Virus record (IMG/VR): IMGVR_UViG_3300040781_000350
From: a virus
Lineage: Duplodnaviria > Heunggongvirae > Uroviricota > Caudoviricetes
DNA: 64,000 nucleotides
Strand: one strand, 5' to 3'
The notes beneath the pieces were generated by a model. The model was not told the DNA's origin. It did no database searches and saw only the letters and a list, made by a program, of their open reading frames with translations. A program made the position numbers and the translations under genes. Positions 35,311 to 47,574 of the stretch are shown piece by piece; the first letter of the stretch is position 1, and each line of letters opens with the position of its first letter.

Positions 35311-35549
35311 AATATTATTTAATGCGGGGTAGGGCGGGATCTGTATAATCTGCGAATAGCGGGGGTCTTAGTAATCTGCGAGGGATCTGCTCCCGGTTTT
35401 TTGTTTGGCATGCAGATATAACCCTAGTTCCAAAACGGCTCAGATAGTAAAGCGTTCCAACGGTTAACCTTCTCAGACCGGGTTCCTCTGAGCACAAAAG
35501 TTTCTCTAGTTCCAACCCACCTCTCGCTAGACCACTTTGGTTCTCTCTG

Positions 35550-35741: not shown

Positions 35742-35938
35742 TACCTGATAGCAGCTTTGATATCACCTATAGTGTTTACACCTTGCTGTGAGTTATCAAT
35801 AGCGATCACTTCTGTATCGTCTGGTAGTAAAGATGCAATTGGGTTAGTCCATCTCATTCCATTACTACGAAAAGCTACCTCTTCTACATTATCTGGATCG
35901 TTTTTAGTTGGCGCTTTGACTGCAAATGTTGTACTCAT
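35741..35938 (-). CDS. hypothetical protein (65 aa)
   Basis: First gene of the small-gene array. Promoter element at 35941-35961. Confidence 0.45.
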   Translation of the reverse strand: MSTTFAVKAPTKNDPDNVEEVAFRSNGMRWTNPIASLLPDDTEVIAIDNSQQGVNTIGDIKAAIR

Positions 35939-35961
35939 ATGTATATTATATCAGAGTTCCA

Positions 35962-36207
35962 TTACTTAGCTGGCGGCCATGTTAGGCCTGCCTCTTGTAG
36001 CTTAGGTACATCTTCGTCAGCAATATCGAACTCATCCTGAGTAGTGTAGTTAGCTTGTTGATGCTCTCCTAATGTGTCGAAGACCATCTGCTCTGGAATG
36101 AACCACCCATAGTCATTACTACTACCTTTAAAGTACACCCTGACCATATTACGGTCATTGATATGATTGACTGATGCGCTCTTATGCTCTGTGATTTGTA
36201 TTACCAT
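35962..36207 (-). CDS. hypothetical protein (81 aa)
   Basis: ORF in the small-gene array (35.9-45.7 kb), where genes follow a conserved promoter element ending 3-7 nt before the ATG or are operonic. This one is operonic with the gene upstream. Confidence 0.4.
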   Translation of the reverse strand: MVIQITEHKSASVNHINDRNMVRVYFKGSSNDYGWFIPEQMVFDTLGEHQQANYTTQDEFDIADEDVPKLQEAGLTWPPAK

Positions 36208-36217
36208 AATTATCCGA

Positions 36218-36403
36218 TCATGCTTGATGCTCTACACTCTTTGCTTCCTGGACCTGCTTCTGGCGCAGGACAAACTCTTCTACCTCGTCAGCTCTGATGC
36301 TGTACGTCGGTATGTGACGATCATGAAACTCCACTCGATAGAACTCACCTTGTGTGGTTGTTAGCGTGACTTCTTTTAGCTCGATTGTATTTGCTTTGCT
36401 CAT
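36218..36403 (-). CDS. hypothetical protein (61 aa)
   Basis: ORF in the small-gene array. Promoter element at 36407-36426. Confidence 0.4.
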   Translation of the reverse strand: MSKANTIELKEVTLTTTQGEFYRVEFHDRHIPTYSIRADEVEEFVLRQKQVQEAKSVEHQA

Positions 36404-36426
36404 GTCGATATTATATCAAGGTTCCA

Positions 36427-36696
36427 TCACAGCATCGGATTGTGCGGAACGTCATTATCTTCTTCCTCACAAATCTCGTGATAGGCACATCCTCTTAGTA
36501 CGCTATTAGCTTTGTACCGAACTGTACCGGTGAATGCTTCTCGCTTTTCCTTCTTGAGTCCAGCTGCTCGAACGTATCGTTCAGCTTGCTCCCGGGTGTT
36601 AAATGTCGCAACTATCTCTTCTTGTTCTTCAGTCTTGAACTGACCTCCGATATGTGAAAGAAAAACGTGCTCTGTTATACCTATTAGCTTTACCAT
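36427..36696 (-). CDS. hypothetical protein (89 aa)
   Basis: ORF in the small-gene array. Promoter element at 36700-36719. Confidence 0.45.
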   Translation of the reverse strand: MVKLIGITEHVFLSHIGGQFKTEEQEEIVATFNTREQAERYVRAAGLKKEKREAFTGTVRYKANSVLRGCAYHEICEEEDNDVPHNPML

Positions 36697-36725
36697 GTAA
36701 TTATTATATCGTGGTTCCGTGAGTG

Positions 36726-37016
36726 CTAATAAACCGCTACCATACGGTGGCTGAACATTGCAGAGAGCTCTCTCAGATTGAGTGGCTTCTCAGCGATCGT
36801 CAAGAACGCATAACCTTCCAGCTCTTCCTGAACCTCTTCTAAATAAACCTCATCACCTTCCCAATCACCTGACTCATCATTGAACGTCACGCGCTCAAAC
36901 GTCATCAAATTGCTATTGCGATCGAGCGTCATGTCGATGTCTTCGTTCTCGCCTAGGTGCACAAACACCATCATATCGTTGCTGCGCATTGCTGGTAATT
37001 CATTTTTCATATTCAT
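36726..37016 (-). CDS. hypothetical protein (96 aa)
   Basis: ORF in the small-gene array. Start at MNMKNELP. The upstream residues in the ORF track (LEPSYNIV) are the promoter element read in frame. Confidence 0.45.
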   Translation of the reverse strand: MNMKNELPAMRSNDMMVFVHLGENEDIDMTLDRNSNLMTFERVTFNDESGDWEGDEVYLEEVQEELEGYAFLTIAEKPLNLRELSAMFSHRMVAVY

Positions 37017-37187
37017 AACAATATTATATGATGGTTCCAATACGGCTATCCGATCAGTCCGACTGCGTTTGCAATCATCACTGCTACAAGCACGACAATA
37101 CCGAACAGTACAACTTTTGCTATTGTTTTGAAGCTCCAACTATTATTTGGTCCAATCATTTTATTTCCCTTTGTTTTTGTTATTTGT

Positions 37188-37577
37188 TTATGCAGCAGTC
37201 TCTTCTACTAACTGCTCTCCATGAAAGCGTCGTGCCCACACCTCTTTGATATGCTCTTTCTGCTCTCTTGTAGATGAAAGGGATACGTACTGCAATCGTA
37301 GCAGGCGCTTGTAACCGCTAAGGTCTTCTACGATGTTGCCATCACCATCGTGCTGCTTTTCATGACGAACCAGACCTCGGCCCTTCTTCGAAACATACTC
37401 AGCGAGGAACTTCTCGTAACTGTTGTCGTATTTCTTCTCAATCAAGCCAGCTAGATACTTGTGATGGAATGCATTTTCCTCACCGGTAACAGTGCACTTG
37501 ACTTTGACCGTGCAGTTAAAAGCTTGCTTACCATCAGCAAACTCGTAGTTGTATAATTTTTTAGCTTTCTTTTCCAT
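37188..37577 (-). CDS. hypothetical protein (129 aa)
   Basis: ORF in the small-gene array. Start at MEKKAKK, 4 nt after the stop of the upstream micro-gene. Confidence 0.45.
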   Translation of the reverse strand: MEKKAKKLYNYEFADGKQAFNCTVKVKCTVTGEENAFHHKYLAGLIEKKYDNSYEKFLAEYVSKKGRGLVRHEKQHDGDGNIVEDLSGYKRLLRLQYVSLSSTREQKEHIKEVWARRFHGEQLVEETAA

Positions 37578-37581
37578 AATG

Positions 37582-37668
37582 TTAAACGTCAATTGCAAAG
37601 TACATCACCATCGCTGCATAGGCTGCAACTACTGTAATGACTGCTATGTGAATGATTAAATGTTTCAT
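37582..37668 (-). CDS. 28-aa hydrophobic micropeptide (putative)
   Basis: ORF in the small-gene array. Sequence MKHLIIHIAVITVVAAYAAMVMYFAIDV, a single transmembrane helix. Promoter element at 37671-37690. Confidence 0.35.
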   Translation of the reverse strand: MKHLIIHIAVITVVAAYAAMVMYFAIDV

Positions 37669-37670
37669 AC

Positions 37671-37690
37671 TGATATTATATCGAGGTTCC
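37671..37690 (-). promoter_or_regulatory. conserved early-type promoter-like element
   Basis: Copy of the conserved early-type promoter-like element, reading tgatattatatcgaggttcc. Its TATAAT hexamer also supplies the TAA stop of the upstream gene. Confidence 0.55.
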
Positions 37691-37849
37691 GAAAAGGTAC
37701 TCATCATATGCTGCCTCATCAGAAGCTTCATATTCTGCTTTATGTAGTGCAATTTCATAATCTGCTTCATCTCGCAGAAATTGCGCTGCTTCAGCTGCTT
37801 GCCATGTATCAATATATTGATCGCGATCGTGTTCTTCTAGATGTGCCAT
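37676..37849 (-). CDS. hypothetical acidic protein (57 aa, not in ORF track)
   Basis: ORF in the small-gene array. Hand-translated as MAHLEEHDRDQYIDTWQAAEAAQFLRDEADYEIALHKAEYEASDEAAYDEYLFGTSI. Its TAA stop lies inside the TATAAT of the next promoter element. Confidence 0.35.
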   Translation of the reverse strand: MAHLEEHDRDQYIDTWQAAEAAQFLRDEADYEIALHKAEYEASDEAAYDEYLFGTSI

Positions 37850-37870
37850 ACCAATATTATATCAGAGTTC

Positions 37871-38143
37871 CTAGAGGGAGTTACGTTTAATGCATCCTGC
37901 TTGGTACTGAAGACGATCTGTATCTTTCAACCAATTCGCAACGAATGTCTTGAGAGGGTACTCAGCATACAATCCATCTTTCCTTCCGCCGATGTGATGA
38001 AAGCCATAATGAGCATTCACATCAATACCTTCGCTGGTAAGAAAGTCAAGATGGGTTCCGAGATCCCATTCCGGATGAATCAGAGTGCTTTGAGCTACCG
38101 AAACTTTTGCTAAATCGAATGTCTGTATTTGCGTTTTTATCAT
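37871..38143 (-). CDS. hypothetical protein (90 aa)
   Basis: ORF in the small-gene array. Promoter element at 38144-38165. Confidence 0.45.
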   Translation of the reverse strand: MIKTQIQTFDLAKVSVAQSTLIHPEWDLGTHLDFLTSEGIDVNAHYGFHHIGGRKDGLYAEYPLKTFVANWLKDTDRLQYQAGCIKRNSL

Positions 38144-38165
38144 ACCAATATTATATCAGGGTTCC
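38144..38165 (-). promoter_or_regulatory. conserved early-type promoter-like element
   Basis: Example copy of the conserved promoter-like element found before nearly every minus-strand gene start in the window. On the plus strand it reads (acc)aatattatatcagggttcc. In minus-strand sense it is GGAACC-CT-GATATAAT-ATTGGT-ATG, an extended -10 (TGnTATAAT) ending 6 nt before the start codon. This copy reads ccaatattatatcagggttcc. Variants occur with 0-6 substitutions. Confidence 0.6.
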
Positions 38166-38259
38166 GAGATGTGATTAGCACCATACTAGCTGTTCAGCAT
38201 CAACATCTAGCTTACGAAGATACTCTTCACGTGCATATCGTTCCTGACGAGCCTTCACT

Positions 38260-38775
38260 TTACGATCGCGCTCTTCTTGAGCTAGTCGACGAGCTTCCTT
38301 CATCCTTAGCAACTTGCTCGTTACCAACAATGATCTCAGCTGCAAGTTCCTCATCGAGCGTCTTCAACCATGCTCGGAACTCCTCGCAATCTTCCTTTGA
38401 TGTCTTAACGACAGCCCATGCATCGTTAAAGTCAACACTCTTATCGAACTTTACGATATGACCAGGGCTGCAACCGCATGAACATCCAGCATTGCGTGAG
38501 TAATGAATACTCTTCACATCAGAAAGAATTTCCTTGATTGCTGCATTAACTGCACGATTGCACTTGCGAAGAACTTTGTTCCAAGTCTTGCACTTAAAGT
38601 CTAGATTATAAATCTTCTTTTCATTGAACCAATCATCTGCGATCGTCATCACACTTTCTTCCTCTTTAGGTGTCTCAGTGTAGATGACCGCTCGGGTGCT
38701 GTGTGAAGGAGCCCAACCATTGCGGCTCTTTGACATCATTTTGTTTCGAATTTCTGCTGTGGTGTTATTTTTCAT
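38260..38775 (-). CDS. hypothetical protein (171 aa)
   Basis: ORF in the small-gene array. Promoter element at 38778-38797. Confidence 0.45.
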   Translation of the reverse strand: MKNNTTAEIRNKMMSKSRNGWAPSHSTRAVIYTETPKEEESVMTIADDWFNEKKIYNLDFKCKTWNKVLRKCNRAVNAAIKEILSDVKSIHYSRNAGCSCGCSPGHIVKFDKSVDFNDAWAVVKTSKEDCEEFRAWLKTLDEELAAEIIVGNEQVAKDEGSSSTSSRRARS

Positions 38776-38777
38776 AC

Positions 38778-38797
38778 CAATATTATATCAGGGTTCC
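38778..38797 (-). promoter_or_regulatory. conserved early-type promoter-like element
   Basis: Copy of the conserved early-type promoter-like element, reading ccaatattatatcagggttcc. In this copy a TTGATC -35-like hexamer sits 18 nt upstream of the TATAAT. Confidence 0.6.
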
Positions 38798-38807
38798 AAT
38801 ACGGCGA

Positions 38808-39128
38808 TCAACCTGCGTCCCAACCATATGGCTTGCAAAGGAACGGCTTACCATCTACATCAACCAGATCACCTACTGATACGCTATACAGAGGACCATC
38901 ATCAGCTCGGAACTTTTCTTCGAAGCGAGCTTCTTCGCTGTCCATGTCCATAAAATCACGTGGCTTGTTTGTAGCTGTGAACACCCACTCAGCAGCCTTT
39001 TCCTGCTCGACCACTCCGTCTGGAAGATCATACTCAAATACTAAGTGGCGAGTTAGGTTATCGAGCTCCTCATCGGTTGCTCCAAATGCTTGGCGTGTGT
39101 CGGTTGGTCGGTATAATTTAATTTTCAT
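38808..39128 (-). CDS. hypothetical protein (106 aa)
   Basis: ORF in the small-gene array. Promoter element at 39131-39150. Confidence 0.45.
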   Translation of the reverse strand: MKIKLYRPTDTRQAFGATDEELDNLTRHLVFEYDLPDGVVEQEKAAEWVFTATNKPRDFMDMDSEEARFEEKFRADDGPLYSVSVGDLVDVDGKPFLCKPYGWDAG

Positions 39129-39130
39129 AC

Positions 39131-39150
39131 TGCGATTATATCAGGGTTCC
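39131..39150 (-). promoter_or_regulatory. conserved early-type promoter-like element
   Basis: Copy of the conserved early-type promoter-like element, reading tgcgattatatcagggttcc. The upstream flank CACATCTC is shared with the copy at 38144. Confidence 0.6.
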
Positions 39151-39159
39151 GAGATGTGG

Positions 39160-39339
39160 CTAGAGTCGAATCTTGATCATCTGTTCCAACCAAGCATGGA
39201 CCTCTTCAATAGTGTCAGCATCTTCTGCACCTTCAACATGATCCATAAACACATCCTCATACCATGTCTCAAAGCTTCCGCTCATCAACAGATTGTAAAC
39301 GCCTTTTGCAACTTCTTCTGTGGTGTGTGTATCTTTCAT
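39160..39339 (-). CDS. hypothetical protein (59 aa, not in ORF track)
   Basis: ORF in the small-gene array. Hand-translated as MKDTHTTEEVAKGVYNLLMSGSFETWYEDVFMDHVEGAEDADTIEEVHAWLEQMIKIRL. Promoter element at 39342-39361. Confidence 0.35.
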   Translation of the reverse strand: MKDTHTTEEVAKGVYNLLMSGSFETWYEDVFMDHVEGAEDADTIEEVHAWLEQMIKIRL

Positions 39340-39360
39340 ATTGATATTATATCGAGGTTC

Positions 39361-39690
39361 CTAGAAGTGATAGAGCGTTGAGCTCTTGTTGTCCTTATCG
39401 ATGCAATTCGTATGCCAATTGTGCATGTAAGCTGGGGTATACTTCTTGCGATGCTCATCGTATTTGTCTTTGCGGCAAATACGCACCTTACCGTAGAAAG
39501 TTCCTAGAGCGCCATACCCGCGATCCTTTTGCGTGACTTTTGTCTTGAACTGTTTGCGATTCTCTTTAAGCCAATCAGTAGCTTCCTTTCTACTCTCAAA
39601 GCCAAGATCGTACATGAGGTAGTTCGTATTGCGTCCAGTGATGCCTTCTGCATAGGCATTTGTATAAGTCATCCAAATAATATATTTCAT
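39361..39690 (-). CDS. hypothetical protein (109 aa)
   Basis: ORF in the small-gene array. Promoter element at 39694-39713. Confidence 0.45.
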   Translation of the reverse strand: MKYIIWMTYTNAYAEGITGRNTNYLMYDLGFESRKEATDWLKENRKQFKTKVTQKDRGYGALGTFYGKVRICRKDKYDEHRKKYTPAYMHNWHTNCIDKDNKSSTLYHF

Positions 39691-39719
39691 ACAATTATTA
39701 TATCAGGGTTCCGTGAGGG

Positions 39720-39974
39720 CTACACACCTGGCAGCTCGAACTTCACATACCAGTGTGATTGATTTGCGAGCGATGCTCCTCCTCGGAACGGCTTCCATTT
39801 ATCGCCGGTAGCAAGAATGATTGCTTCTGGGAAAGCTTTCCTTACTTTCTCCTCGAGCATCTCTGATGTGTACCCATTTCGGTAAAAGTAACCTTTGCGT
39901 ACTGTAAAGATGCCTTTGCTCTTGCTGACGTGGTTTCCGATCTTTTCTTCGACTTGACGTGATGTAATTTTCAT
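39720..39974 (-). CDS. hypothetical protein (84 aa), MKxIT N-terminus family
   Basis: ORF in the small-gene array. Starts MKITSRQVEEK. Promoter element at 39977-39996. Confidence 0.45.
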   Translation of the reverse strand: MKITSRQVEEKIGNHVSKSKGIFTVRKGYFYRNGYTSEMLEEKVRKAFPEAIILATGDKWKPFRGGASLANQSHWYVKFELPGV

Positions 39975-39999
39975 ATGGTTATTATATCGAGGTTCCATG

Positions 40000-40509
40000 C
40001 TAGATGTTGTGGATGATCTTACCTGCAATTTTGATCTTGCGAAGTGATGATATTTTGTAATCACGTTCTGGTATTTCCTTCTCGATGCCTACTGCTTGCT
40101 GAGTAGCTGTTGGTGCTGCTTTAGGCAAGAATGGCTTTAGTTCCGCTAGAGGAATCTCAACTCCAGTCTCCTTATCGATGTAATAAGTTTTGCCGTTCAG
40201 CTGTTGAGGCTTGACGCTCAAGTATTGCTCACCTTTATGATGAATGATGAAGCGATGTTCCTCATCACGAACACCCCAACGACGAGGCTTAGCTTTGAAA
40301 ATAGCTTCCTTCCCCTCACGTTCGAGCTGACGATTAACGCCTGCTTCGTAGTTAGTTCCGATCAAGCCGCCAACGAATGCAACCTTGATGACGCGTCCAA
40401 AGTATGGATTGTTCGTCTTGTTCATGCGAGGCTCGGTATGAGCTTCGAATGAGATTGGTGTAGTGCCATTATTGGCATTTTCGATGATGTGGTGTACGAT
40501 GTTTTTCAT
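40000..40509 (-). CDS. hypothetical protein (169 aa)
   Basis: ORF in the small-gene array. Promoter element at 40513-40532. Confidence 0.45.
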   Translation of the reverse strand: MKNIVHHIIENANNGTTPISFEAHTEPRMNKTNNPYFGRVIKVAFVGGLIGTNYEAGVNRQLEREGKEAIFKAKPRRWGVRDEEHRFIIHHKGEQYLSVKPQQLNGKTYYIDKETGVEIPLAELKPFLPKAAPTATQQAVGIEKEIPERDYKISSLRKIKIAGKIIHNI

Positions 40510-40530
40510 AATCAGATTATATCTAGGTTC

Positions 40531-40722
40531 CTAGACGTCCAGTCTGTATGCTGTAACTACTAGATCATCGATCTCACTCTCTTTCTGAGCAATTTGCTTC
40601 TCTAAATAAGCTAGTGCATCATCAGGTGCATCCTTATTCATCGCAAGTGTATGATAATATTCATGCAAGATGCTCAATTGTGCCTCAGCATGCTCCAATT
40701 TTTGTAGTGGTGTCTTTTCCAT
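40531..40722 (-). CDS. hypothetical coiled-coil protein (63 aa)
   Basis: ORF in the small-gene array. Start at MEKTPLQ. Promoter element at 40725-40744. Confidence 0.4.
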   Translation of the reverse strand: MEKTPLQKLEHAEAQLSILHEYYHTLAMNKDAPDDALAYLEKQIAQKESEIDDLVVTAYRLDV

Positions 40723-40833
40723 ACCAACATTATATCTAGGTTCCAAGACATGAAAGGACTCGAGCCACACCACATAACTCGAGTCCCGACCCCCTTGGGT
40801 CAACCACCTTTTGCCAACCACGGCACATGAAAA

Positions 40834-41049
40834 TTATTCTTCCGGTTCCTTAAAAATTTCGTCTTGCTCTCCTGGCAAAAGACCAGTCATAAGAAATTCT
40901 CGCTCAGTTGCATTGAGCATCGGAAAGGCTTCCTGAATCATCATGCCGTCTTTCCATTTTTTGTTGCACTCGAGAAACTCTTGCGAGCTAATATTGAGAT
41001 GCATCTCATTTGTTTTGCCTGTCAGTGGATTGGTTTTTGTGATCTTCAT
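40834..41049 (-). CDS. hypothetical protein (71 aa)
   Basis: ORF in the small-gene array. Promoter element at 41053-41072. Confidence 0.4.
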   Translation of the reverse strand: MKITKTNPLTGKTNEMHLNISSQEFLECNKKWKDGMMIQEAFPMLNATEREFLMTGLLPGEQDEIFKEPEE

Positions 41050-41061
41050 AATGTTATTATA

Positions 41062-41349
41062 TTACTGTTCCGTTTCAGCAAGACGCTCGTTATATTTTGC
41101 AAGAATATGATCTTCAACCCTCTTGTATGAACCCCAGCAACTTGATGGCACATGATTGTAGATGAATACAATGAGCTTTCTGAGCTCATCACTCTCTTGA
41201 GGACAATTATCATATCGTCCGTAAGCACCGAAGAGATCATTTGCAAGTACTGCATTGATAAACCCTCCTGGCTCATAACCATTCTCGATATAGTCCATCA
41301 TCGTCTGAGCAAACCGTTTCGGACACTTGTTGTAATCTATTTCAAACAT
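41062..41349 (-). CDS. hypothetical protein (95 aa)
   Basis: ORF in the small-gene array. Promoter element at 41352-41371. Confidence 0.45.
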   Translation of the reverse strand: MFEIDYNKCPKRFAQTMMDYIENGYEPGGFINAVLANDLFGAYGRYDNCPQESDELRKLIVFIYNHVPSSCWGSYKRVEDHILAKYNERLAETEQ

Positions 41350-41375
41350 ATATTATTTTATCAGGGTTCCGTCAC

Positions 41376-41612
41376 CTAAACGTTGTTCGGTCCAGTACCA
41401 ACTCGATCAGATACTTTATCGAGATAGTCATAAAGGAATTCAATTTGCGCTAATCGAGCGAGATCCATATTGTTATCGAGATTCGCTTCGCGTTCGAAAC
41501 TGTTGAGTTGTTCCTCGAGAGCTTCAAACATATATGTCATATGCATCTGACGCTCATCAGTTGACATTTGTTTGTACTTTGTAGTGTATTTAATTTTCTG
41601 TGCTTGATTCAT
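41376..41612 (-). CDS. hypothetical protein (78 aa)
   Basis: ORF in the small-gene array. Promoter element at 41615-41634. Confidence 0.45.
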   Translation of the reverse strand: MNQAQKIKYTTKYKQMSTDERQMHMTYMFEALEEQLNSFEREANLDNNMDLARLAQIEFLYDYLDKVSDRVGTGPNNV

Positions 41613-41638
41613 ACTACGATTATATCAGGGTTCCGAAA

Positions 41639-41917
41639 TTAGAACTCCTTCTTAAAGCTGATGCATGTGACTGTTTGGCCGCGCATCCATCGAGCGGAAC
41701 GATTGATCTCATGATCATATACCTCGAATGTATAAAGCTCGAATGCTTTGGTGAGCATGTCTTTGATCATGCGCTTTGCTGCATCATCGTAGTTACAATT
41801 CGTTTTGATGCGAACTGTTCCGTCTTTGCGTACATCTCGGAAATAATTTCCTGGTGTAACAGTGCGTGTTGACGCGATTAATACTCGAATGTCTCTAATG
41901 GTTGGTGCTGTAATCAT
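41639..41917 (-). CDS. hypothetical protein (92 aa)
   Basis: ORF in the small-gene array. Start at MITAPTIRD. Promoter element at 41918-41939. Confidence 0.45.
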   Translation of the reverse strand: MITAPTIRDIRVLIASTRTVTPGNYFRDVRKDGTVRIKTNCNYDDAAKRMIKDMLTKAFELYTFEVYDHEINRSARWMRGQTVTCISFKKEF

Positions 41918-42001
41918 ACTATTATTATAAGAAGGTTCCAAGAATGGAAAGCTGCCAGCTCTTTCGAACTGACAGCCCAAGTCGTTTCCGCCCTCCATTC
42001 A

Positions 42002-42514
42002 CTAACCGAAATGCGCTGTCAATACTTTGTTCATGCATACTCGAAGTTCCTTCAAGTCAGCAATCAGCGCATCTCGTGAGTAAAGTTCCAATACCTTCAC
42101 TACATCATGCTTGTACGAATCAAGCTTGCTTACTAGCGTAGGTTTGTCTTTGATAAAATCGTAGTAGTCACCATCAGCTTTGACTGTTCCGTCTCTCTCG
42201 TTGATAGCATACTCCATGTAATTACAGACCTCTTTGTCATAACCAAGTACTTCACAAACGGTGTAAATTCGCATGCGATGACTCAGATCGCAATCACCGG
42301 TAACAAGTTCCTTAGCAAGGTTGTAACCGGAACGTTTTGTTGGCCAAGGACCATCTTTTACATATTTAAATGCTCCTTCTTCAACTTCCAAATTGTTCCA
42401 GAACTTCCAATGATCGTATGGGTAAGTATTCTCCCATGCCCCATCGGAGAGCTGCCCGAGAATCTCATGTTCGAAAAGAGCTTTGAGCCGTTTTGGTAAT
42501 GTCAATATATTCAT
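42002..42514 (-). CDS. hypothetical protein (170 aa)
   Basis: ORF in the small-gene array. Here the promoter element (42548-42566) sits about 30 nt upstream, so this gene has a leader. Confidence 0.45.
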   Translation of the reverse strand: MNILTLPKRLKALFEHEILGQLSDGAWENTYPYDHWKFWNNLEVEEGAFKYVKDGPWPTKRSGYNLAKELVTGDCDLSHRMRIYTVCEVLGYDKEVCNYMEYAINERDGTVKADGDYYDFIKDKPTLVSKLDSYKHDVVKVLELYSRDALIADLKELRVCMNKVLTAHFG

Positions 42515-42579
42515 AATGTGTGCGGTTGTTATTGCTTAATTGCAACTATATTATAAAAGGGTTCCGTTCTGGCTAACCC

Positions 42580-42702
42580 CTAAATTGATGCAAGTAGCAC
42601 GATACCTAAACCGATTGCGAGGCCGATTAGCCAGCTACCTAGCAAGGCACCTATGCAAGTTAAAAAGGCGACAAATGCGAGAGCGTTTGGATTAATATTC
42701 AT
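42580..42702 (-). CDS. 40-aa hydrophobic micropeptide (putative, not in ORF track)
   Basis: ORF in the small-gene array. Hand-translated as MNINPNALAFVAFLTCIGALLGSWLIGLAIGLGIVLLASI, with one or two transmembrane helices. Confidence 0.3.
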   Translation of the reverse strand: MNINPNALAFVAFLTCIGALLGSWLIGLAIGLGIVLLASI

Positions 42703-42811
42703 AATGTGTTCCGTGTTCTAGATAATGTTTAATTGTTCCTGCTTCCTCTTCATCGATGCAGTGACTGATTAAAGGATCTATAATCATTTGTTCAATACAG
42801 GAACGTTCCTG

Positions 42812-42846
42812 TTCCAGTTCCGTGGCGGCGGCTATTACCCTTACTG
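42812..42846. repeat. perfect 11-bp GC-rich inverted repeat flanked by GGAAC/GTTCC repeat clusters
   Basis: GTGGCGGCGGC-tattacccttact-GCCGCCGCCAC. Upstream is ggaacgttcctgttccagttcc (42789-42811). Downstream is ctgttcctgttccactaaacgttccagttccagttcc (42857-42892). Confidence 0.7.
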
Positions 42847-42901
42847 CCGCCGCCACTTGTTCTATCTGTTCCTGTTCCACTAAACGTTCCAGTTCCAGTT
42901 C

Positions 42902-43240
42902 CTACACTCGTTGTGGATCGAAAATATGGAACACTGTCACTTGTGTGTTCCGCATAATATCACTCACATTATACTTCGGGTCATCTTTCAAGGAACTGAT
43001 GCCAAACCCTCGCAGGTATTGAGAGATTGCCAATGTGTGGCCAGCTGTAACAACTGCACTGACATTCAATCGTGATAGTTCCTCTACTACCTTCTCGAGG
43101 ATCGATAACGGAACAACCTTCTCGATCTTAATACGATACCGACCATCTTGATGACGATCATTATAATGAGTAACACAAGTCAAATCGACTCCATGTTTCT
43201 CAATTGCATTGCGAACTTCTTTATATGTGATGTTTTTCAT
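42902..43240 (-). CDS. hypothetical protein (112 aa), MKNIT N-terminus family
   Basis: ORF in the small-gene array. Start at MKNITYKEV. Promoter element at 43241-43262. Confidence 0.45.
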   Translation of the reverse strand: MKNITYKEVRNAIEKHGVDLTCVTHYNDRHQDGRYRIKIEKVVPLSILEKVVEELSRLNVSAVVTAGHTLAISQYLRGFGISSLKDDPKYNVSDIMRNTQVTVFHIFDPQRV

Positions 43241-43263
43241 ATCGATATTATAAAAGGGTTCCA

Positions 43264-43788
43264 TTACGCTGCAATCAGCTCTCTAACAATCAGCTTGCCG
43301 AGAGTTTCATGCTTCTTTCCGATCATGTACCGATCTCTGTTGATCTTGTTGAGCTGGAACCCTTTTGGTATGCGAGCTTTTTTCGCATAGATGACTCCTG
43401 TTTCAACATTCATGATAGCATATAAGAGCTTTTTACGACTGCGAGCAACAACATGTTCTGTAATATCTGTTTTGCCATTTGCAAGACGTGTAGGAGATGC
43501 TCCAATTTCTCTACAGATGCGCTTCCAACGATAGTCATGCCTGCAGCATTCACCATGACGATGATAAGCAAGTGCGTGAGCGATCTCATGCAGCATCGTA
43601 TCGAGAACCTCTTCCTCTTTACCAACACGGCACAATGTTTGATTGATTGCGAGAGTGCGATCGCGGTAGCGGCATTGACCGTATGTACGATAAGCACTCT
43701 TCTTTAGCAACCGCGGGCGCCATCCATGTTTGTCGAGGCCGTGCTGCTCAATTAACTTTCTGTACGTTGTTAGTGGTGTCATCATCAT
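43264..43788 (-). CDS. SprT-like zinc metallopeptidase domain protein (putative)
   Basis: ORF in the small-gene array. 174 aa. HEIAHALAYH contains the HExxH motif, with a C-x-H…C cluster downstream, in a SprT-like layout. Start at MMMTPL. Promoter element at 43791-43810. Confidence 0.4.
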   Translation of the reverse strand: MMMTPLTTYRKLIEQHGLDKHGWRPRLLKKSAYRTYGQCRYRDRTLAINQTLCRVGKEEEVLDTMLHEIAHALAYHRHGECCRHDYRWKRICREIGASPTRLANGKTDITEHVVARSRKKLLYAIMNVETGVIYAKKARIPKGFQLNKINRDRYMIGKKHETLGKLIVRELIAA

Positions 43789-44015
43789 ACTACGATTATA
43801 TCTGGGTTCCAAAAAGGCAAAACCATTTAAGATCATCGCAAATCTCTATAGAGGCGAGCCGCTAAGCTCGGGTTTTAACCCCTCAGTATCAGTAGGTCGA
43901 TGCAGTCACCTATCATCAGCTTTAATTTAAAGACGAGCTGGTTCGATTGCGTCTCCATCCGCGTTTAGGGTCTGTGATGGGTTCGACCTTGCGATAAATT
44001 ATTGTATCAGTGTTC

Positions 44016-44192
44016 CTATTCAACAACTGCTTCAATGCCATGATCAACTGCTTCACTGACCTTAACACCATTACGCATATGGTTAAGAGCAATCTGCTGC
44101 GCTTTGTTCATCTGTGTTAGTGTTAGCACAACAGCAAAGTCATTGCGTGCAACTTGTTCAATTGTCTGTAGGCTGGCGTCTCTAATTTTCAT
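44016..44192 (-). CDS. hypothetical protein (58 aa)
   Basis: ORF in the small-gene array. Start at MKIRDAS. Promoter element at 44195-44214. Confidence 0.4.
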   Translation of the reverse strand: MKIRDASLQTIEQVARNDFAVVLTLTQMNKAQQIALNHMRNGVKVSEAVDHGIEAVVE

Positions 44193-44261
44193 ACGGTTAT
44201 TATATTGTGGTTCCATGCACATATTTAATGTGAACAACCGATTAAATATGCATCCATAATA

Positions 44262-44519
44262 TTATCGATTAGTTGCGAAGCGAGGAACAAAGCAGTTCTC
44301 AACCACTCCAGTTCGGCGGTTCATGTTTGTGACAATACCACAAATGTCATGCATAAATTCAACTCGTGGAGCTTCATGTAAACGCTCCCAATTCATTCCC
44401 ATATCATCTGCATTGAGCAGATCCATGACAAGTGTCATGCGGTCAATTTTGATGCCCATCTCGGTGAATTCATCTTCAGCGCGATCAGCTACTTTGGTCA
44501 TTATTTCTAGTGGTCTCAT
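44262..44519 (-). CDS. hypothetical protein (85 aa)
   Basis: ORF in the small-gene array. Promoter element at 44522-44541. Confidence 0.45.
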   Translation of the reverse strand: MRPLEIMTKVADRAEDEFTEMGIKIDRMTLVMDLLNADDMGMNWERLHEAPRVEFMHDICGIVTNMNRRTGVVENCFVPRFATNR

Positions 44520-44540
44520 ACTCAGATTATAAGAAGGTTC

Positions 44541-45014
44541 CTACCTGTGCTTGACTGCTAATGTAACACTTGCATGATAGTTACAAGGCATGACCTGTAC
44601 GCTATGTACATTAACTGGCTCGGAAAGTTCCATCCATTGCTGTAATGCTGGAACTAAATCTTCATTTGGATCATCCCATGTACCTGTATTGATATCAAAG
44701 CTGATGTTCACGCTTCTAATTTCGCGATTAGGCTTAGGTAGTTCTATTTCCTTACCTTGTTCAAAGCGAAGACCATAGCATGATTGCGAAGCAAGAGCAA
44801 TTGCGATGTCAGCAACATGACCTTTAAATGTTCCAAGCTGCTTAGTAGTGCGACCTTCACAGTCACCTTCTGTTGTAACCTTCCATATACCTTCTGGAGG
44901 ACCGACAGTGTCTTGCATTTTGTTCCAGATATCACGCTGTCGTTCGACAGCACTATCTCGGCGTTTAAGTTCCTGAGCTAGCTGCTCAGATGTAAATTGT
45001 TTAAGGCTATCCAT
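44541..45014 (-). CDS. hypothetical protein (157 aa)
   Basis: ORF in the small-gene array. Operonic with the gene upstream (TAA-T-ATG junction). Confidence 0.45.
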   Translation of the reverse strand: MDSLKQFTSEQLAQELKRRDSAVERQRDIWNKMQDTVGPPEGIWKVTTEGDCEGRTTKQLGTFKGHVADIAIALASQSCYGLRFEQGKEIELPKPNREIRSVNISFDINTGTWDDPNEDLVPALQQWMELSEPVNVHSVQVMPCNYHASVTLAVKHR

Positions 45015-45015
45015 A

Positions 45016-45171
45016 TTAGCCTACGATCTTATATTCGTCGCGCATGCTATCTGCTAATGACATCTTGACCGACTTAAGAGTGATGCCCGGAACTTTGCAT
45101 AGTGCATATTCTTCACGTGCACGTTCGGTCACAAGCTTGTTAAATTCTTTCTGTGTGATGGTTGTTTTCAT
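45016..45171 (-). CDS. hypothetical protein (51 aa, not in ORF track), MKTTIT N-terminus
   Basis: ORF in the small-gene array. Hand-translated as MKTTITQKEFNKLVTERAREEYALCKVPGITLKSVKMSLADSMRDEYKIVG. Variant promoter element at 45174-45194. Confidence 0.35.
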   Translation of the reverse strand: MKTTITQKEFNKLVTERAREEYALCKVPGITLKSVKMSLADSMRDEYKIVG

Positions 45172-45195
45172 AAGTGGTATGTTAAGAGGGTTCCA

Positions 45196-45420
45196 TTATG
45201 GCTCTTTACGAAGAGATGGATGACATGTCTCATTAAAGCCTTCAAACCATGCAGCATTTTCGAGCTCATTTTGTTCGACCTTCTTAGTCATCTCTGGTGT
45301 ATCATGTCTTCTATGACCTAAACGAAATGGTCCACCTGGTGTGTAATCCCAGTTCTCAGAACCATCAAACTTAAGACCGGTCAGGCGACCATCTTTGTAT
45401 GCTTTAATGTTTGATTTCAT
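45196..45420 (-). CDS. hypothetical protein (74 aa)
   Basis: ORF in the small-gene array. Variant promoter element at 45424-45444. Confidence 0.45.
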   Translation of the reverse strand: MKSNIKAYKDGRLTGLKFDGSENWDYTPGGPFRLGHRRHDTPEMTKKVEQNELENAAWFEGFNETCHPSLRKEP

Positions 45421-45446
45421 GTCGCTATGTTAAGAGGGTTCCAAGA

Positions 45447-45641
45447 TTAATCATCACCGAATAAGTTGTCATTGTCCCATTGATCACAAGCACGAACTAG
45501 ATCAGTGATGACCTGCTCACGACCAACATTGAATGCGAAGCGAATGAATGTTAAACACCCATGATCATATACACCTGGTATGTTCCGGCCGCGTGCTTCA
45601 GCGAGTGATTCGATTGCTTGTTCGTATGTGATTGTTTTCAT
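45447..45641 (-). CDS. hypothetical protein (64 aa), MKTITYE N-terminus
   Basis: ORF in the small-gene array. Start at MKTITYEQAIE. Variant promoter element at 45642-45662. Confidence 0.45.
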   Translation of the reverse strand: MKTITYEQAIESLAEARGRNIPGVYDHGCLTFIRFAFNVGREQVITDLVRACDQWDNDNLFGDD

Positions 45642-45678
45642 GCCTCTAGTATAGAGAGGTTCCAATCCAGCTCAGAAC

Positions 45679-45694
45679 GGAACAGTGATATAAT
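45679..45694 (+). promoter_or_regulatory. promoter-like element in plus-strand orientation (P1) at the edge of the noncoding region
   Basis: GGAACAGTGATATAAT read directly on the plus strand. This is the same element as the minus-strand family but inverted. No ORF follows it. Confidence 0.5.
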
Positions 45695-45790
45695 ATGTGT
45701 ACAGCCAGATCGTGTCGTGAGCGAAATGCAGAGCCCGAGGGGTTGGCGAGAACTCCCTTGAGATATGGACCTGCTCCATCTCGGAAAAAA

Positions 45791-45806
45791 GGAACTGTGA
45801 TATAAT
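45791..45806 (+). promoter_or_regulatory. promoter-like element in plus-strand orientation (P2)
   Basis: GGAACTGTGATATAAT on the plus strand, followed by about 340 nt of GC-rich ORF-free sequence. Confidence 0.5.
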
Positions 45807-45809
45807 TGA

Positions 45810-46150
45810 TGTGCTCCACCTACCTGCCTAACAAGGATTGCCGGGATGGAAGGAGCAGAGATCTAGAGCTAGAGAGCAAACTACTCACCCTAGAGCGGAA
45901 AAGACCGGATGGGTTGCTAATGAAGAGTTTATAGGCCCCCACGCCTAGGCGGATCCAAACGGTCCAGCTATGCTTCTCTATAGAAATCCAGCTAAAAATG
46001 CTGGTAATGCGCCAGGTGCATAGGGAGTTAGAAGATTCTAACTTCAGGGTCGCCCGTCCGGATTCTCGCCCGGGTGAATTTACGCCCGTTTTGCCGCTCT
46101 GTAACTCGTTGAGAGGGTATGAGTTTACAGCCGATCCTGGCACGTAGTTC
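45810..46150 (+). ncRNA. candidate structured noncoding RNA (GC-rich, ORF-free) downstream of plus-strand promoter P2
   Basis: No ORF of 60 aa or more on either strand apart from compositionally implausible Ser/Leu/Arg-rich ones. Many short hairpins (CCAGCtaaaaatGCTGG, TTAGAAgaTTCTAA, CCTAGG palindrome, three CGCCCG repeats). GC content is far above the local mean. Its identity is unknown. Confidence 0.35.
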
Positions 46151-46151
46151 T

Positions 46152-46167
46152 GGAACCATGATATACT
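46152..46167 (+). promoter_or_regulatory. promoter-like element in plus-strand orientation (P3, degenerate -10)
   Basis: GGAACCATGATATACT on the plus strand, followed by an ORF-free AT-rich then purine-rich region. Confidence 0.4.
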
Positions 46168-46385
46168 AGTGTTTTAATTTAACAGTGAGATAGCAGCCAT
46201 GTAATAGATACACATAATAATATACGTAGACGTGCATATGAAGCGCTATATATGAAGCGCTTAGGGCTCTCCGAGAGCCACGTAAGGATATATACGTGGG
46301 GTAATAATAAATGCCCGGGATAGCCAGGACGAATCTGCTATTGCAAGCGGGCTCAACTTGTGCGTATAGCTAGAAAGGAACACCT

Positions 46386-46490
46386 GCGCGGGAGATCGCG
46401 AGAGAAAGTGCGGGAGAGATAGCGCGCAGTGCGATAAGAGAGCGAGCGCGGGTGGGAGGGAGAAAATTTGAGCGGGAGACCTAACCAAAT
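46386..46490 (+). repeat. purine-rich degenerate repeats (GCGGGAGA motif about 5 times)
   Basis: gcgcgggagatcgcgagagaaagtgcgggagagatagcgcgcagtgcgataagagagcgagcgcgggtgggagggagaaaatttgagcgggagacc has a strongly GA-rich plus strand. Confidence 0.6.
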
Positions 46491-46735
46491 ACCCGCTTAG
46501 ATTCTATCATTTCCGTGCCCTCATATACCTCTCCTCACATAACCCTCTTGACTTTTCATACCTTGCTTAGCCTCTCCTCTAGGCTATTGCTCACATCAAC
46601 AACAACCCTGCATCCATCATTAGTAGATATTACATTCACACTTATATGTTCATCCTCTATCTCCACACCATGATTTTTCATCATGCTCTTTACCCTCTCT
46701 TTTATACCGCTTTTAAAATTATCATCTACCATTTT

Positions 46736-46810
46736 ATTACTCTTTCTATTAGTATTGTTATTGATGTTACTATTTCTAATATTACTCTTTCTATTGTTAT
46801 TAGTATTGTT
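46736..46810. repeat. iteron-like direct repeats in AT-rich DNA
   Basis: attactctttctattagtattgtt at 46736-46759 recurs as attactctttctattgttattagtattgtt at 46781-46810. A related ttactatttctaat lies between them. Confidence 0.55.
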
Positions 46811-46946
46811 GTTATTAATACCCTGCGGGTGGGCTCATTTCCTTCACTGGTGAGATATCGGGCTGTATACTAATGCCATTCCAGTTCCAAAAATACTTCC
46901 ACACATCTTTCTCTTTTCTACACCATATCAATACCATAATTATACT

Positions 46947-47156
46947 TCAGTTCCTTTTTGTATACACCATCCACACACCATCTCTTTTACTCAATGAAAC
47001 ACATTCAAACAACATCTTACCATTCACAATTTCATATGGTACGCCAGCTACAATAAGTATTGCACATACTTCATCCTCAGTCAAGTCACAAACATATTCC
47101 TTTTTACATGCTTGTTCACACATATTTAAAATGCTTTTAATATCATCAATCTTCAT
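46947..47156 (-). CDS. hypothetical protein (69 aa)
   Basis: First minus-strand gene after the 1.3 kb noncoding region. Confidence 0.4.
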   Translation of the reverse strand: MKIDDIKSILNMCEQACKKEYVCDLTEDEVCAILIVAGVPYEIVNGKMLFECVSLSKRDGVWMVYTKRN

Positions 47157-47160
47157 TATA

Positions 47161-47574
47161 TTACCCAGATAATCTTTTTGTTTTAATTAAACCATTTGTA
47201 TCTCTATAAACCATGAACCGGTGTGTTACAACAATACCAAATCTCACACTATTATACACTCTATATGATCCACACTTAGTCTGTGTGAAATCAAATTCAG
47301 CAATTGCATGCTTTGGTACAATAATTAGTCTCTTGTTATCATCTCTATAATGGTATTCATCTGTGTATTCCACCACATGCTCTGATTTTGGATTACATAA
47401 CCCCCAGTGACGCAAGTTACCTATGAATACATTTTGTGTTTGTATCCAGTGGTCTTGACCAATAATCTTAATCTTTACAGTCAGCTTGTGTACATCTTTA
47501 CGCTGAACTTCATAGAACCTGTGTTTAAAAAATTGTTTGATCTTATTCATCCACCGGAACATAATATGTTTCAA
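47161..47574 (-). CDS. hypothetical protein (up to 137 aa)
   Basis: Start is either 47574 (31-nt overlap with the upstream gene) or MNKIKQ at 47553. Confidence 0.45.
   Translation of the reverse strand: MKHIMFRWMNKIKQFFKHRFYEVQRKDVHKLTVKIKIIGQDHWIQTQNVFIGNLRHWGLCNPKSEHVVEYTDEYHYRDDNKRLIIVPKHAIAEFDFTQTKCGSYRVYNSVRFGIVVTHRFMVYRDTNGLIKTKRLSG

Follow-up and report, generated by a model that had tools for sequence, protein, structure and literature searches.

An island of putative promoter-driven non-coding RNA genes in an uncultured marine T4-like phage

The locus described here lies in a 64,000-nucleotide stretch of a Caudoviricetes genome (IMG/VR record IMGVR_UViG_3300040781_000350), referred to below as the window. 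The interval 45642-46555 (914 nt) is the largest gap in the window without an ATG-initiated open reading frame (ORF) of at least 50 amino acids on either strand, the next largest being approximately 390 nt. In a preliminary description, 45666-46946 was given as the only long stretch without a credible gene; the gap is indeed the longest one, but the right third of the stretch so described (46556-46946) is not strictly ORF-free, since it carries a minus-strand ORF of 58 amino acids (46556-46732). This ORF converges on the island, is accepted by gene callers and lacks a leaderless promoter. It is an orphan, with no homologue among 1.84 billion representative proteins nor in the related loci, and its status as a gene is uncertain. 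Within the island itself the minus-strand ORFs of 107 and 75 amino acids are noise-like, the former without a Pfam match, and a plus-strand ORF of 49 amino acids was rejected as a gene, having no counterpart among the related loci. The left edge of the island is marked by a minus-strand promoter at 45648-45663 (GGAACCTCTCTATACT-agaggc-ATG), serving a leaderless gene of 64 amino acids (45447-45641).

The GC content is 0.48-0.54 over 45700-46500, against 0.38 for the whole window, which confirms the GC-rich segment described earlier, and the island lies at the boundary between an early block of 41-44% GC and a block of 34-38% GC. The palindromes (ATATGAAGCGCT twice, GGCTCTC/GAGAGCC and CACGTA/TACGTG) and the GA-rich repeats of the CGCGAGAGAT/GCGGGAGA type at 46386-46490 are likewise present. 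It had been considered that the region could be an unassembled repeat or a junction. A 201-kb Logan contig and a JGI contig, assembled independently, both carry the sequence with 100% identity, and the island is therefore neither an assembly artefact nor a contig end.

A scan of the window with the promoter pattern GGAACNNTGATATAMT, allowing up to two mismatches, returned 49 matches where 1.7 are expected by chance. Forty-six of these are on the minus strand, with the consensus GGAAC-N5-TATAAT-N6-ATG, and in about 45 copies the ATG lies exactly 6 nt past the -10 element, as expected if the mRNAs are leaderless. On the plus strand there are three matches, each of them exact (GGAAC-N5-TATAAT) and each in the island, opposing the flanking genes as first noted: P1 (45679-45694, GGAACAGTGATATAAT), back-to-back with the promoter of the left-hand gene, P2 (45791-45806, GGAACTGTGATATAAT) and P3 (46152-46167, GGAACCATGATATACT). 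In these copies an ATG is found 0 nt or 2 nt past the -10 element or is absent; none has an ATG at +7, and the earlier view that they offer no leaderless start holds. They belong to the general promoter class of the phage, no MotA-type middle promoter being recognisable. A fourth ATG-less promoter, overlooked at first, is found on the minus strand, which is the gene strand, at 46939-46954 (GGAACTGAAGTATAAT, followed downstream by tatggtATTGATATGG). It faces the island, forms an inverted-repeat pair with P2, and would either supply the 58-aa ORF with a leadered mRNA or produce one more non-coding RNA, running toward the transcript from P3. In related phages, ATG-less promoters of the same type are present just upstream of tRNA genes called by ARAGORN (L021, 5387, tRNA-Leu; L022, 6704, tRNA-Met; L087, 3763, tRNA-Arg; L095, 1091, tRNA-Leu; L125, 9582, tRNA-Thr), so that in this lineage a promoter lacking the ATG appears to mark a stable-RNA gene.

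The putative transcript of P1, RNA1, would be about 90 nt long (45701-45790, plus strand) and contains a conserved core at 45728-45783 (GCAGAGCCCGAGGGGTTGGCGAGAACTCCCTTGAG..GGACC), with the family consensus AGCCCRAGGGGUUGGNGAGRACU...GGACC. A leave-one-out nhmmer profile, built from six relatives with the window excluded, gave a single match in the window, at the core, with E=3.3e-6. The full profile reaches E values of 1e-9 to 1e-17 in the relatives, and its matches within 1.3 Mb of related loci are restricted to these islands. The only match to the core in a genome scan, in an Actinomycetota MAG, is inside a coding region and was judged to be due to chance. Narrow motif scans for RNA1 and RNA2 in viral and metagenome contigs recovered only L038, L052 and L129.

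The relatives, found through scans with the promoter pattern, form a lineage of marine T4-like phages, likewise uncultured, that use this promoter type. Homologous islands are present in six other lineages (L052, L129/L038, L132, L135/136, L137/138 and L150), all of them opposite in strand to the flanking genes and each with one or two ATG-less promoters. All islands have 46-59% GC, against a background of 36-39%, and the strand proposed to be the RNA has more G than C (GC skew +0.02 to +0.29). Homologues of P1 with the same GGAACWGTGNTATAAT and an ATRTGTA start are found in L052, L129/L038, L132, L135, L137 and L150. A homologue of the second promoter followed by TRRTGTG is found in L052, L129 and L135; the L150 contig stops just past its second promoter, and L137 has a degenerate second promoter directly against the end of its converging gene. 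None of the relatives has a counterpart of P3. A further locus, L148, carries opposite-strand ATG-less promoters but not RNA1. No ORF is shared across the islands, the frames over the conserved blocks differing between phages in the seven homologues.

The flanking proteins of the window have no homologues beside the other islands, so that conservation is higher in the RNA sequence than in the genes around it, and the converging gene is a different one in every relative. Two scans of viral contigs for synteny through the flanking proteins gave no match. The 129-aa right neighbour matches only itself, the best SprT-like matches are 40% identical and not syntenic, and a 157-aa protein has matches only in Bacillus SPO1-like phages. 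At the nucleotide level cultured phages yielded no homologue, whether the query was the region itself, 15 kb of the window, or the island of L129 or L052. Melnitz, a marine methylophage in which a tmRNA behind an early promoter has been noted (PMC9004378), was considered as a cultured relative and rejected, as the promoter motif is no commoner in it than by chance (1 match, 1.1 expected).

Islands of this kind vary in size from about 110 to about 850 nt, with one to three promoters and with duplications (the CCTTACCTC flanks in L052 and L135 and a 20-nt repeat present four times in L135). Such variability is what decayed coding DNA or the remnant of a mobile element, for instance a degraded homing endonuclease or intron, could leave behind, the duplicated promoters then having no function. 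A GC content 10-15 points above that of the genome, as for foreign DNA, and the fact that other assemblies of the same phage break inside the island (SRR7428125, SRR7428131 and 3300040782, at 46063-46481) point the same way. We nevertheless consider this origin very improbable: the promoters are exact consensus copies and not decayed ones, the RNA1 core is conserved across lineages with differing neighbour genes, the minus-strand ORFs of the island are noise-like and without a Pfam match, and there is no intron or ribozyme match and no flanking split gene.

Past the RNA1 core the relatives have a GGA...UCC hairpin, which varies in length, and then a U-rich tail; hairpins with U-rich tails are found after RNA1 in L129, L052, L135 and L137, and in L132 a clean terminator, CCCCCGCGGGGGG-UUU (C5-GC-G6 then UUU), lies past the core. 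These terminator-like hairpins suggest a released RNA. In the window the GGA/UCC hairpin is no longer than 3 bp and precedes A6, with no obvious terminator, and a terminator scan found none on the plus strand. The fold energy of RNA1 shows no excess (z ~0) and RNAalifold gave no convincing consensus structure (-3.3 kcal/mol); together with the missing terminator of the window copy, these values count against a non-coding RNA. As to covariation, proposed at the outset as a check, a small hairpin, GCCC-NNN-GGGU, has two compensated pairs, but 10 of 500 shuffles reach the observed score, and the seven sequences represent essentially one lineage event.

The second putative transcript, RNA2 (45813-46151, plus strand), has approximately 340 nt and 52% GC, and a closed multi-branch fold is predicted for it. 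For the segment 45812-46160 the minimum free energy is -126 kcal/mol, and compared with shuffles the plus strand (z=-3.36) departs further from expectation than the minus strand (z=-1.92), which bears out the structured segment of the preliminary description. It has short collinear motifs in common with the RNA2 of L129, L052 and L135, and a conserved 10-bp palindrome, CGCCTAGGCG, is found within it at 45942-45951. Most of RNA2, and of RNA3, has no counterpart in the relatives, and RNA2 is largely specific to this phage.

RNA3 (46174-46510, plus strand) would start with short hairpins (46240-46330) and continue into the GA-rich repeats; it has 61% purines, a GC skew of +0.23 and a fold z of -1.6. 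Near its end is a conserved 3' module (46453-46503), common to L129, L052, L132 and L135, in which GGGAGG(G)AGAAAA(AA)TTT is followed by a 12-bp hairpin with the stem 46465-46476/46492-46503 and a 15-nt loop containing CTAAC. Since the automatic alignment of the module was poor, the hairpin was compared sequence by sequence. Its stem sequences vary between phages, and in each of the four that were compared G-U pairs make the plus-strand form the stabler one (e.g. -14.5 against -9.7 kcal/mol). The module is probably the end of the plus-strand unit.

None of these segments could be assigned to a described class of RNA. Rfam 15 gave no match in the whole window at the gathering score, only three chance snoRNA/lncRNA matches far below threshold at E<=10 over 45300-47300, and none at E<=1 in the homologous islands of the six loci, while ARAGORN called no tRNA or tmRNA gene in the window. 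The island is therefore not GOLLD, ROOL or tmRNA, and the suggestion that it might hold one of these, HEARO, an intron or RNase P found no covariance-model match. It resembles GOLLD and ROOL in being a GC-rich, well-folding non-coding segment of a phage genome, and differs from them in its lack of a match at E<=10, in the length of RNA2 (about 340 nt against 500-800 nt) and in the poor conservation of that segment. A protein sponge of the CsrB/RsmZ type was rejected, as GGA counts are those expected from composition (RNA1, 2 against 2.2; RNA2, 9 against 6.3, P=0.14; RNA3, 9 against 9.1). A type I toxin-antitoxin or cis-antisense arrangement was also rejected: the product of the orphan 58-aa ORF that converges on the island is hydrophilic, and the converging genes of the relatives differ.

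To the right of the 58-aa ORF, and in frame with it, lie the AT-rich direct repeats that had been taken for iterons (46735-46817). They are present, but imperfect (period 15, 3.9 copies, 63% matches), and they are low-complexity sequence of the AAT/AAC type, which read on the minus strand gives Asn-rich codons without a start codon. Copies of the repeat family are 63-84% identical with irregular spacings of 12, 18 and 15 nt, and they have no counterpart in the relatives. In iteron-type origins at least three regularly spaced direct repeats, well conserved and each about 17-22 bp long, stand beside the gene for the initiator that binds them. With periods of 12-15, 63% matches, no conservation and neighbours that match no replication family, an origin of this type was rejected.

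The T4 origins oriF and oriG consist of a promoter whose non-coding transcript enters easily unwound DNA, and the primary origin of T7 has tandem promoters followed by AT-rich DNA. By analogy, a G-cluster transcript of the island could stay hybridised to the DNA and serve as the primer of the leading strand, with unwinding made easier by the promoter tandem and by AT-rich DNA farther downstream. The island does have three consensus promoters without ATG, arranged in tandem and followed in the window by an AT-rich tract with direct repeats (GC 0.30 at 46600-46900), an arrangement resembling the T7 origin; the proposed RNA strand is G-rich, with the positive GC skew given above; and conserved G-clusters, GGGGTTGGGG, lie on the non-template strand 40-55 nt downstream of the conserved promoters. 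In the window the G-clusters are weaker than the family consensus (GGGGTTGGCGAG). Neither the AT-rich tract nor the repeats are conserved, the RNA unit abutting the converging gene directly in L129 and L137. Terminator-like hairpins follow RNA1, the clean one of L132 included, and the promoters are of the general class and not of a special middle-mode class. No replication gene is adjacent to the island by the Pfam and replication-family check of the flanking proteins. GC skew shows neither a sign change nor a cumulative step at the island, though such a change is not expected in T4-type phages. As to the purine-rich, R-loop-forming transcript that had been proposed, RNA3 is purine-rich as stated, but the plus strand is no richer in purines than sense strands generally are in these genomes, so that no R-loop is needed to explain it. 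The conserved G-clusters might still have some part in an R-loop. The replication origin of the preliminary description thus lacks comparative support, and we regard an RNA-primed origin as quite improbable. The likeness to T4 and T7 is one of a G- or purine-rich non-coding transcript running from tandem promoters toward easily unwound DNA; promoter class, the unconserved AT-rich tract, the terminators of RNA1 and the missing skew signal set the island apart. The palindrome CGCCTAGGCG and the G-clusters could equally be signals at the DNA level.

The orientation of the island suggests another role, in which the act of transcription or antisense pairing, and not a trans-acting RNA, would matter. 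Gene-strand transcription that starts on the right, at the 58-aa ORF and the promoter at 46954, and reads toward the dense cluster of early genes to the left could meet the opposing promoters and collide or pair with their transcripts. The island is always placed between two gene-strand units and always opposes them; it is at the border of the two GC blocks; and in the window P3 and the minus-strand promoter at 46954 converge. The degenerate promoter of L137 against the converging gene, and the opposite promoters of L148 without RNA1, also fit. Just beyond the island in L052, L135, L137 and L150 there is a terminator-like element on the gene strand, and the island may therefore be transcribed on both strands. 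Interference alone, however, leaves the conservation of the RNA1 core unexplained while the flanking genes are replaced, and it does not require the GC-richness and fold excess of RNA2. RNA1 moreover overlaps no gene, since P1 stands back-to-back with the promoter of the left-hand gene. An insulator or antisense control element is for these reasons unlikely.

We favour, with moderate confidence, the reading of the region as an island of promoter-driven non-coding RNA genes of the phage. The evidence that carries it is a genuine promoter class without the +1 ATG, found with the island in six related lineages, the absence of any conserved ORF, the conservation of the 3' module and of RNA1, the GC-rich composition, and the strand-specific fold excess of RNA2. 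RNA1, as judged from its sequence, is common to six relatives and belongs to no RNA family so far described. We infer from this arrangement that the RNAs are produced, the positions of their ends and their action in trans. Three promoters of the ordinary class would fire against all neighbouring genes. Translation in this phage would begin at an AUG sited exactly at the 5' end of the transcript, and because this AUG is absent the products of the three plus-strand promoters would remain untranslated. RNA1, whose layout in the relatives of core, hairpin and U-rich tail is that expected of a free-standing, terminated small RNA, may act in trans, its largely unstructured core attaching early in infection to an RNA or protein of either the host or the phage. 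The second unit would have been expanded in this phage into the GC-rich and strongly folding RNA2, the third promoter would add the hairpin-rich, purine-rich RNA3, and the plus-strand unit would end at the hairpin 46465-46503, roughly 50 nt past the point where the converging 58-aa ORF stops.

Comparable RNAs are found in other phages. T4 encodes stable small RNAs (species 1 and 2, rnaC/rnaD) and tRNA clusters. Like these, the island units are presumed untranslated, belong to a T4-type phage and have ordinary promoters, and the ATG-less promoters of the relatives drive tRNA genes; unlike these, they have no sequence or structure relation to a known RNA (Rfam, ARAGORN), run opposite to all neighbours, are not beside tRNAs in the window and, in the case of RNA1, are not strongly structured. 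Small RNAs of Pseudomonas phages have reportedly been mapped by dRNA-seq. With trans-acting small RNAs in general RNA1 shares its own promoter, a length of 80-120 nt, a single-stranded core, the lack of an ORF and, in L132, L129 and L052, a 3' hairpin with a U-rich tail; it differs in that the window copy has no clear terminator and in the tandem array of one to three units with an expansion to about 340 nt. Few phage small RNAs have been described, and we know of none in this uncultured marine T4-like lineage.

RNA1 is a compact, conserved candidate: its core measures about 50 nt, recurs in seven phage lineages and is absent from Rfam. The genome logic of these phages, with one promoter per gene and leaderless mRNAs, is unusual. 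A promoter without a +1 AUG is a mark of RNA genes recognisable in the DNA alone, and the non-coding genes of the lineage are therefore predictable and can be tested against marine metatranscriptomes. A role of RNA1 in host translation or in the priming of replication, if confirmed, would be relevant to the takeover of host cells by these abundant phages of the ocean.

One form of action on translation would be that of a decoy. The G-rich, Shine-Dalgarno-like cores (GGGGAGGAC, GGGAGGAGAAAA), made early and abundantly, might bind to 16S rRNA at its anti-Shine-Dalgarno end, or tie up some other factor that the host needs for leadered mRNAs, shutting off canonical host translation, sparing the phage 5'-AUG mRNAs and so helping a phage with leaderless mRNAs to seize translation. 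We think this highly doubtful, and it gains little from the motif counts, since GGAG and GAGG are not enriched in the window or L132 but exceed the composition expectation in L052 and L129 (P ~0.01).

The promoter motif GGAACNNTGATATAMT, searched with up to two mismatches, has 49 matches in the window against 1.7 expected, so that the conserved element reported in the preliminary description is real. The minus strand carries 46 of these matches. In about 45 of the minus-strand copies (e.g. 35724-45663) the downstream sequences listed have a fixed layout of GGAAC, five bases, TATAAT, six bases and ATG. Since the spacing from the -10 to the ATG is constant, the start codon is placed at the expected transcription start, a layout which implies for most genes a promoter of their own (roughly one per gene) and a leaderless mRNA. 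The sole plus-strand matches are the three copies already described at 45679 (P1), 45791 (P2) and 46152 (P3), all of them exact and none followed by the ATG at +7. A fourth ATG-less copy, missing from the earlier list, is found on the minus strand (46954..46939) and faces the island formed by P1 to P3. Another ATG-less promoter (GGAACACTGATACAAT) heads the minus-strand segment 44016..43811, in which some 180 gene-free nt separate it from the next promoter, at 43810; with a fold z-score of -0.7, this segment makes only a weak case for an additional small RNA or a long leader.

The longest gap in the window without an ATG-initiated ORF of at least 50 amino acids on either strand coincides with the island (45642-46555, 914 nt; the next longest is about 390 nt). 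The ORF-free region had been drawn as 45666-46946, and its right-hand part does hold an ORF, a 58 amino acid minus-strand frame accepted by gene callers and having no homologs among 1.84 billion representative proteins. The palindromes, GA-rich repeats and AT-rich repeats are all present as described. Of these, the AT-rich repeats are only approximate, with a period of 15 and 63% matches, and on the minus strand correspond to Asn-rich codons in frame with the 58 amino acid orphan ORF, with no start codon. The GC-rich segment was likewise found (GC 0.48-0.54 across 45700-46500). GC content is 38% for the window as a whole and 41-44% in the promoter-dense block at 32-46 kb (32000-46000) versus 34-38% elsewhere, the island being positioned at the right-hand boundary of this block.

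An assembly artefact is excluded by identical sequence in independent assemblies. The 201 kb metagenomic Logan contig SRR7428126_1894 includes the whole 64 kb window, and a JGI contig of sample 3300040769 is identical to it around the island. Three other assemblies of the same phage (SRR7428125, SRR7428131 and JGI 3300040782) are 100% identical in the overlap and have contigs ending inside the island, at 46063, 46378-46382 and 46469-46481; in two of the three the ends, at 46469-46481, interrupt the stem of the hairpin in the 3' module described below. These breaks may stem from low coverage, from variation between strains or from a problem in sequencing.

The phage is a myovirus of the T4 type, though a very distant one. 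Among the PHROG matches in the window are the portal, the tail-sheath stabiliser, a DNA ligase and RNA ligases; the nearest cultured phages by portal are cyanophages and vibriophages (31% identity), and no nucleotide similarity to cultured phages was found. The flanking proteins were unproductive as a route to related loci, and relatives were recovered by scanning IMG/VR for the promoter together with its +7 ATG. As the same promoter architecture occurs in more than 100 IMG/VR loci or contigs among the matches listed, and as the portal of one of them (L018) is 65% identical to that of the window, the phage belongs to a sizeable uncultured lineage, whose identifiable sources are seawater or Tara Oceans samples.

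In these related loci, ATG-less copies of this promoter are followed after 20-80 nt by tRNA genes that ARAGORN calls (L021 5387(-), L022 6704(-), L087 3763(-), L095 1091(+) and L125 9582(+)), so that in this lineage an ATG-less promoter marks a stable-RNA gene. Elsewhere a conserved RNA, about 115 nt long, comes after such promoters (L026 8490(+), L030 5306(+), L037 12618(+), L104 12214(+) and L087 1343(-)). It combines a long internal insert with an acceptor and T-arm resembling those of a tRNA (GGCCCGG...GCAGGTTCAATACCTGCTCGGGCC), and goes uncalled by ARAGORN in L026 and L087. A second conserved non-coding start, GACAAGTGAGTATAAACACGGTTAAGC, is found behind ATG-less promoters of two phages (L023 4523(-) and L048 13946(+)). 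In L052 and L038 the ATG-less promoters are opposite to all genes of the locus, and the sequence behind them is similar to RNA1, the putative P1 transcript of the window (about 45701-45790).

The suggested GOLLD/ROOL-type RNA was not borne out: Rfam 15 gave zero matches in the whole window at the gathering score and, at E<=10 for 45300-47300, three chance matches far under the thresholds. ARAGORN called no tRNA or tmRNA in the window. A tmRNA reading, prompted by the paper on the marine methylophage Melnitz (PMC9004378), found no support, and Melnitz does not share the promoter motif. The segment behind P2 (RNA2, 45812-46160) has a predicted folding energy of -126 kcal/mol (z=-3.36 relative to dinucleotide shuffles; reverse complement z=-1.92; core 45860-46110 z=-3.0). 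RNA3, behind P3, is marginal (z=-1.6) and RNA1 (45701-45800) has no excess of fold energy (z=+0.2).

Homologous islands were identified by further scans and look-ups in six lineages besides the window. Two promoters are present in L052, in L129 (the same as L038), in L150, which lies at a contig end, and in L135/L136; L137/L138 have one promoter and a degenerate second, and L132 has one promoter and fused RNAs. The 20-nt tandem repeat ATACGAATACAAATTCTCAA, of which the L135 island has about four copies at its 3' end (about 1500-1600, minus strand), is a recent local amplification, given that L052, a close relative, has it only once. All islands have a GC content of 46-59% against a background of 36-39%, and on the strand proposed for the RNA G is more frequent than C. 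The purine excess is as large as the sense-strand bias normally seen in these genomes, which fits plus-strand transcription and makes the earlier inference of a purine-rich, R-loop-forming transcript superfluous. An R-loop replication origin could still draw on conserved G-clusters 40-55 nt past the start on the non-template strand, a kind of sequence that initiates R-loops, and on the AT-rich DNA beyond the island in the window. The AT-rich tract and repeats are, however, not conserved in relatives, so that the proposed iteron origin has no comparative support; with terminator-like hairpins after RNA1 in relatives, no adjacent replication gene and a flat GC skew, we regard an origin as quite improbable.

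The islands share a conserved core of RNA1, composed of AGCCCRAGGGGTTGGNGAGRACT, 12 nt (often CCCTTGAGGACC) and GGACC. Within 1.3 Mb of DNA from related loci, the profile of this core matches islands only (E 1e-9 to 1e-17), and when built without the window sequence it has a single plus-strand match in the window and no other, at 45728-45783 (E=3.3e-6). The only match to a possible host or prophage copy, inside an Actinomycetota gene, was judged to be chance. No homologs of the proteins flanking the window island occur in the other island loci, so that RNA1 is more strongly conserved than the genes beside it. The islands have no reading frame in common: the short ATG-ORF spanning the core in the window is missing from L052 and L137, and L129 and L132 contain nothing equivalent to a 25-codon ORF that follows a Shine-Dalgarno-like block in L052, their conserved nucleotides being in other frames. 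The islands always oppose gene-strand transcription, that of the window converges with the promoter at 46954 and lies at the GC boundary, all of which would suit an insulator or antisense control element; we consider this unlikely, as it leaves the conservation of RNA1 unexplained. Decayed coding or mobile DNA, to which the foreign-looking GC content and variable island size might point, fits poorly with exact consensus promoters and a conserved core and is hardly credible.

The reading we hold, with moderate confidence, to be the most probable is that promoter-RNA units arranged in tandem encode non-coding RNAs. The promoters are of the ordinary class of the phage, and the missing +1 AUG would keep their transcripts from being translated. 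The conserved RNA1, the ATG-less promoters and the lack of a common frame support, and sharpen, the earlier non-coding proposal. The putative RNA1 has the layout of a free-standing small RNA, with a promoter to itself, a length of about 90 nt, a core that is conserved and largely unstructured and, in relatives, a terminal hairpin and U-rich tail; RNA2 would be a strongly folding, lineage-specific expansion, and RNA3 would add hairpins and a purine-rich tail, the array terminating at a conserved hairpin. The RNAs presumably act in trans. They would constitute a new family of conserved small RNAs, together with structured RNAs particular to the lineage, distinct from the GOLLD/ROOL type, and belong with the known phage-encoded small RNAs; the island is a concrete element directly checkable against marine metatranscriptomes.

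The hairpin 3' of the RNA1 core is closed by GGA/UCC, has a variable interior and is usually followed by U-rich sequence; its stem is 3 bp in the window and 4-6 bp in most relatives, L132 having a C5-GC-G6 stem and then UUU. Evidence for structure within RNA1 is weak: RNAalifold gave no convincing consensus, and in a small hairpin, GCCC-NNN-GGGU, the two compensated pairs both come from one lineage, with 10 of 500 shuffles reaching the observed score. The 3' module, GGGAGG(G)AGAAAA(AA)TTT and a hairpin with a CTAAC-containing loop, is common to the window (46453-46503), L129, L052, L132 and L135. Its stem sequences vary between phages and, owing to G-U pairs, it is more stable on the plus than on the minus strand in all four phages compared. 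The window (45942), L052 and L135 have the palindrome CGCCTAGGCG in common, and L129 has the variant TGCCTAGGCG. Between these conserved anchors the window has several hundred extra nt, including P3, which relatives lack; most of RNA2 and RNA3 is therefore phage-specific and beyond covariation tests.

GGA is not enriched, and a CsrA-type sponge was rejected. GGAG/GAGG is enriched in L052 and L129, and in the window does not exceed composition, for which reason a Shine-Dalgarno decoy was dropped as the main reading; from these counts such a role for the island RNAs appears very improbable. An element of about 50 nt (AAAGCCCCCCGCTAACCCGGGAC...GCCTTACCTCGCA) is conserved between divergent promoters in L052 (5700-5750) and just upstream of P1 in L135, L137 and L150, and is absent from the window. 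It is terminator-like on the gene strand (CCCGGGTTAGCGGGGGGCTTTT), and its likeness to the 3' end of RNA1 suggests a partial duplication. Opposite-strand ATG-less promoters also occur in gene-dense regions of L148 (2533(-)) and L146 (412(-)), where no RNA1 was found; CTGCCTAG in the L148 RNA recalls the palindrome region of RNA2. Lastly, three phages have the leader ATAGTTGCAATTAAGCA in common after a promoter (window 42565..42515, minus; L038 13934(-); L052 3701(-)). The genes behind it differ in their protein N-termini, and the leader may be a conserved 5'-UTR element.
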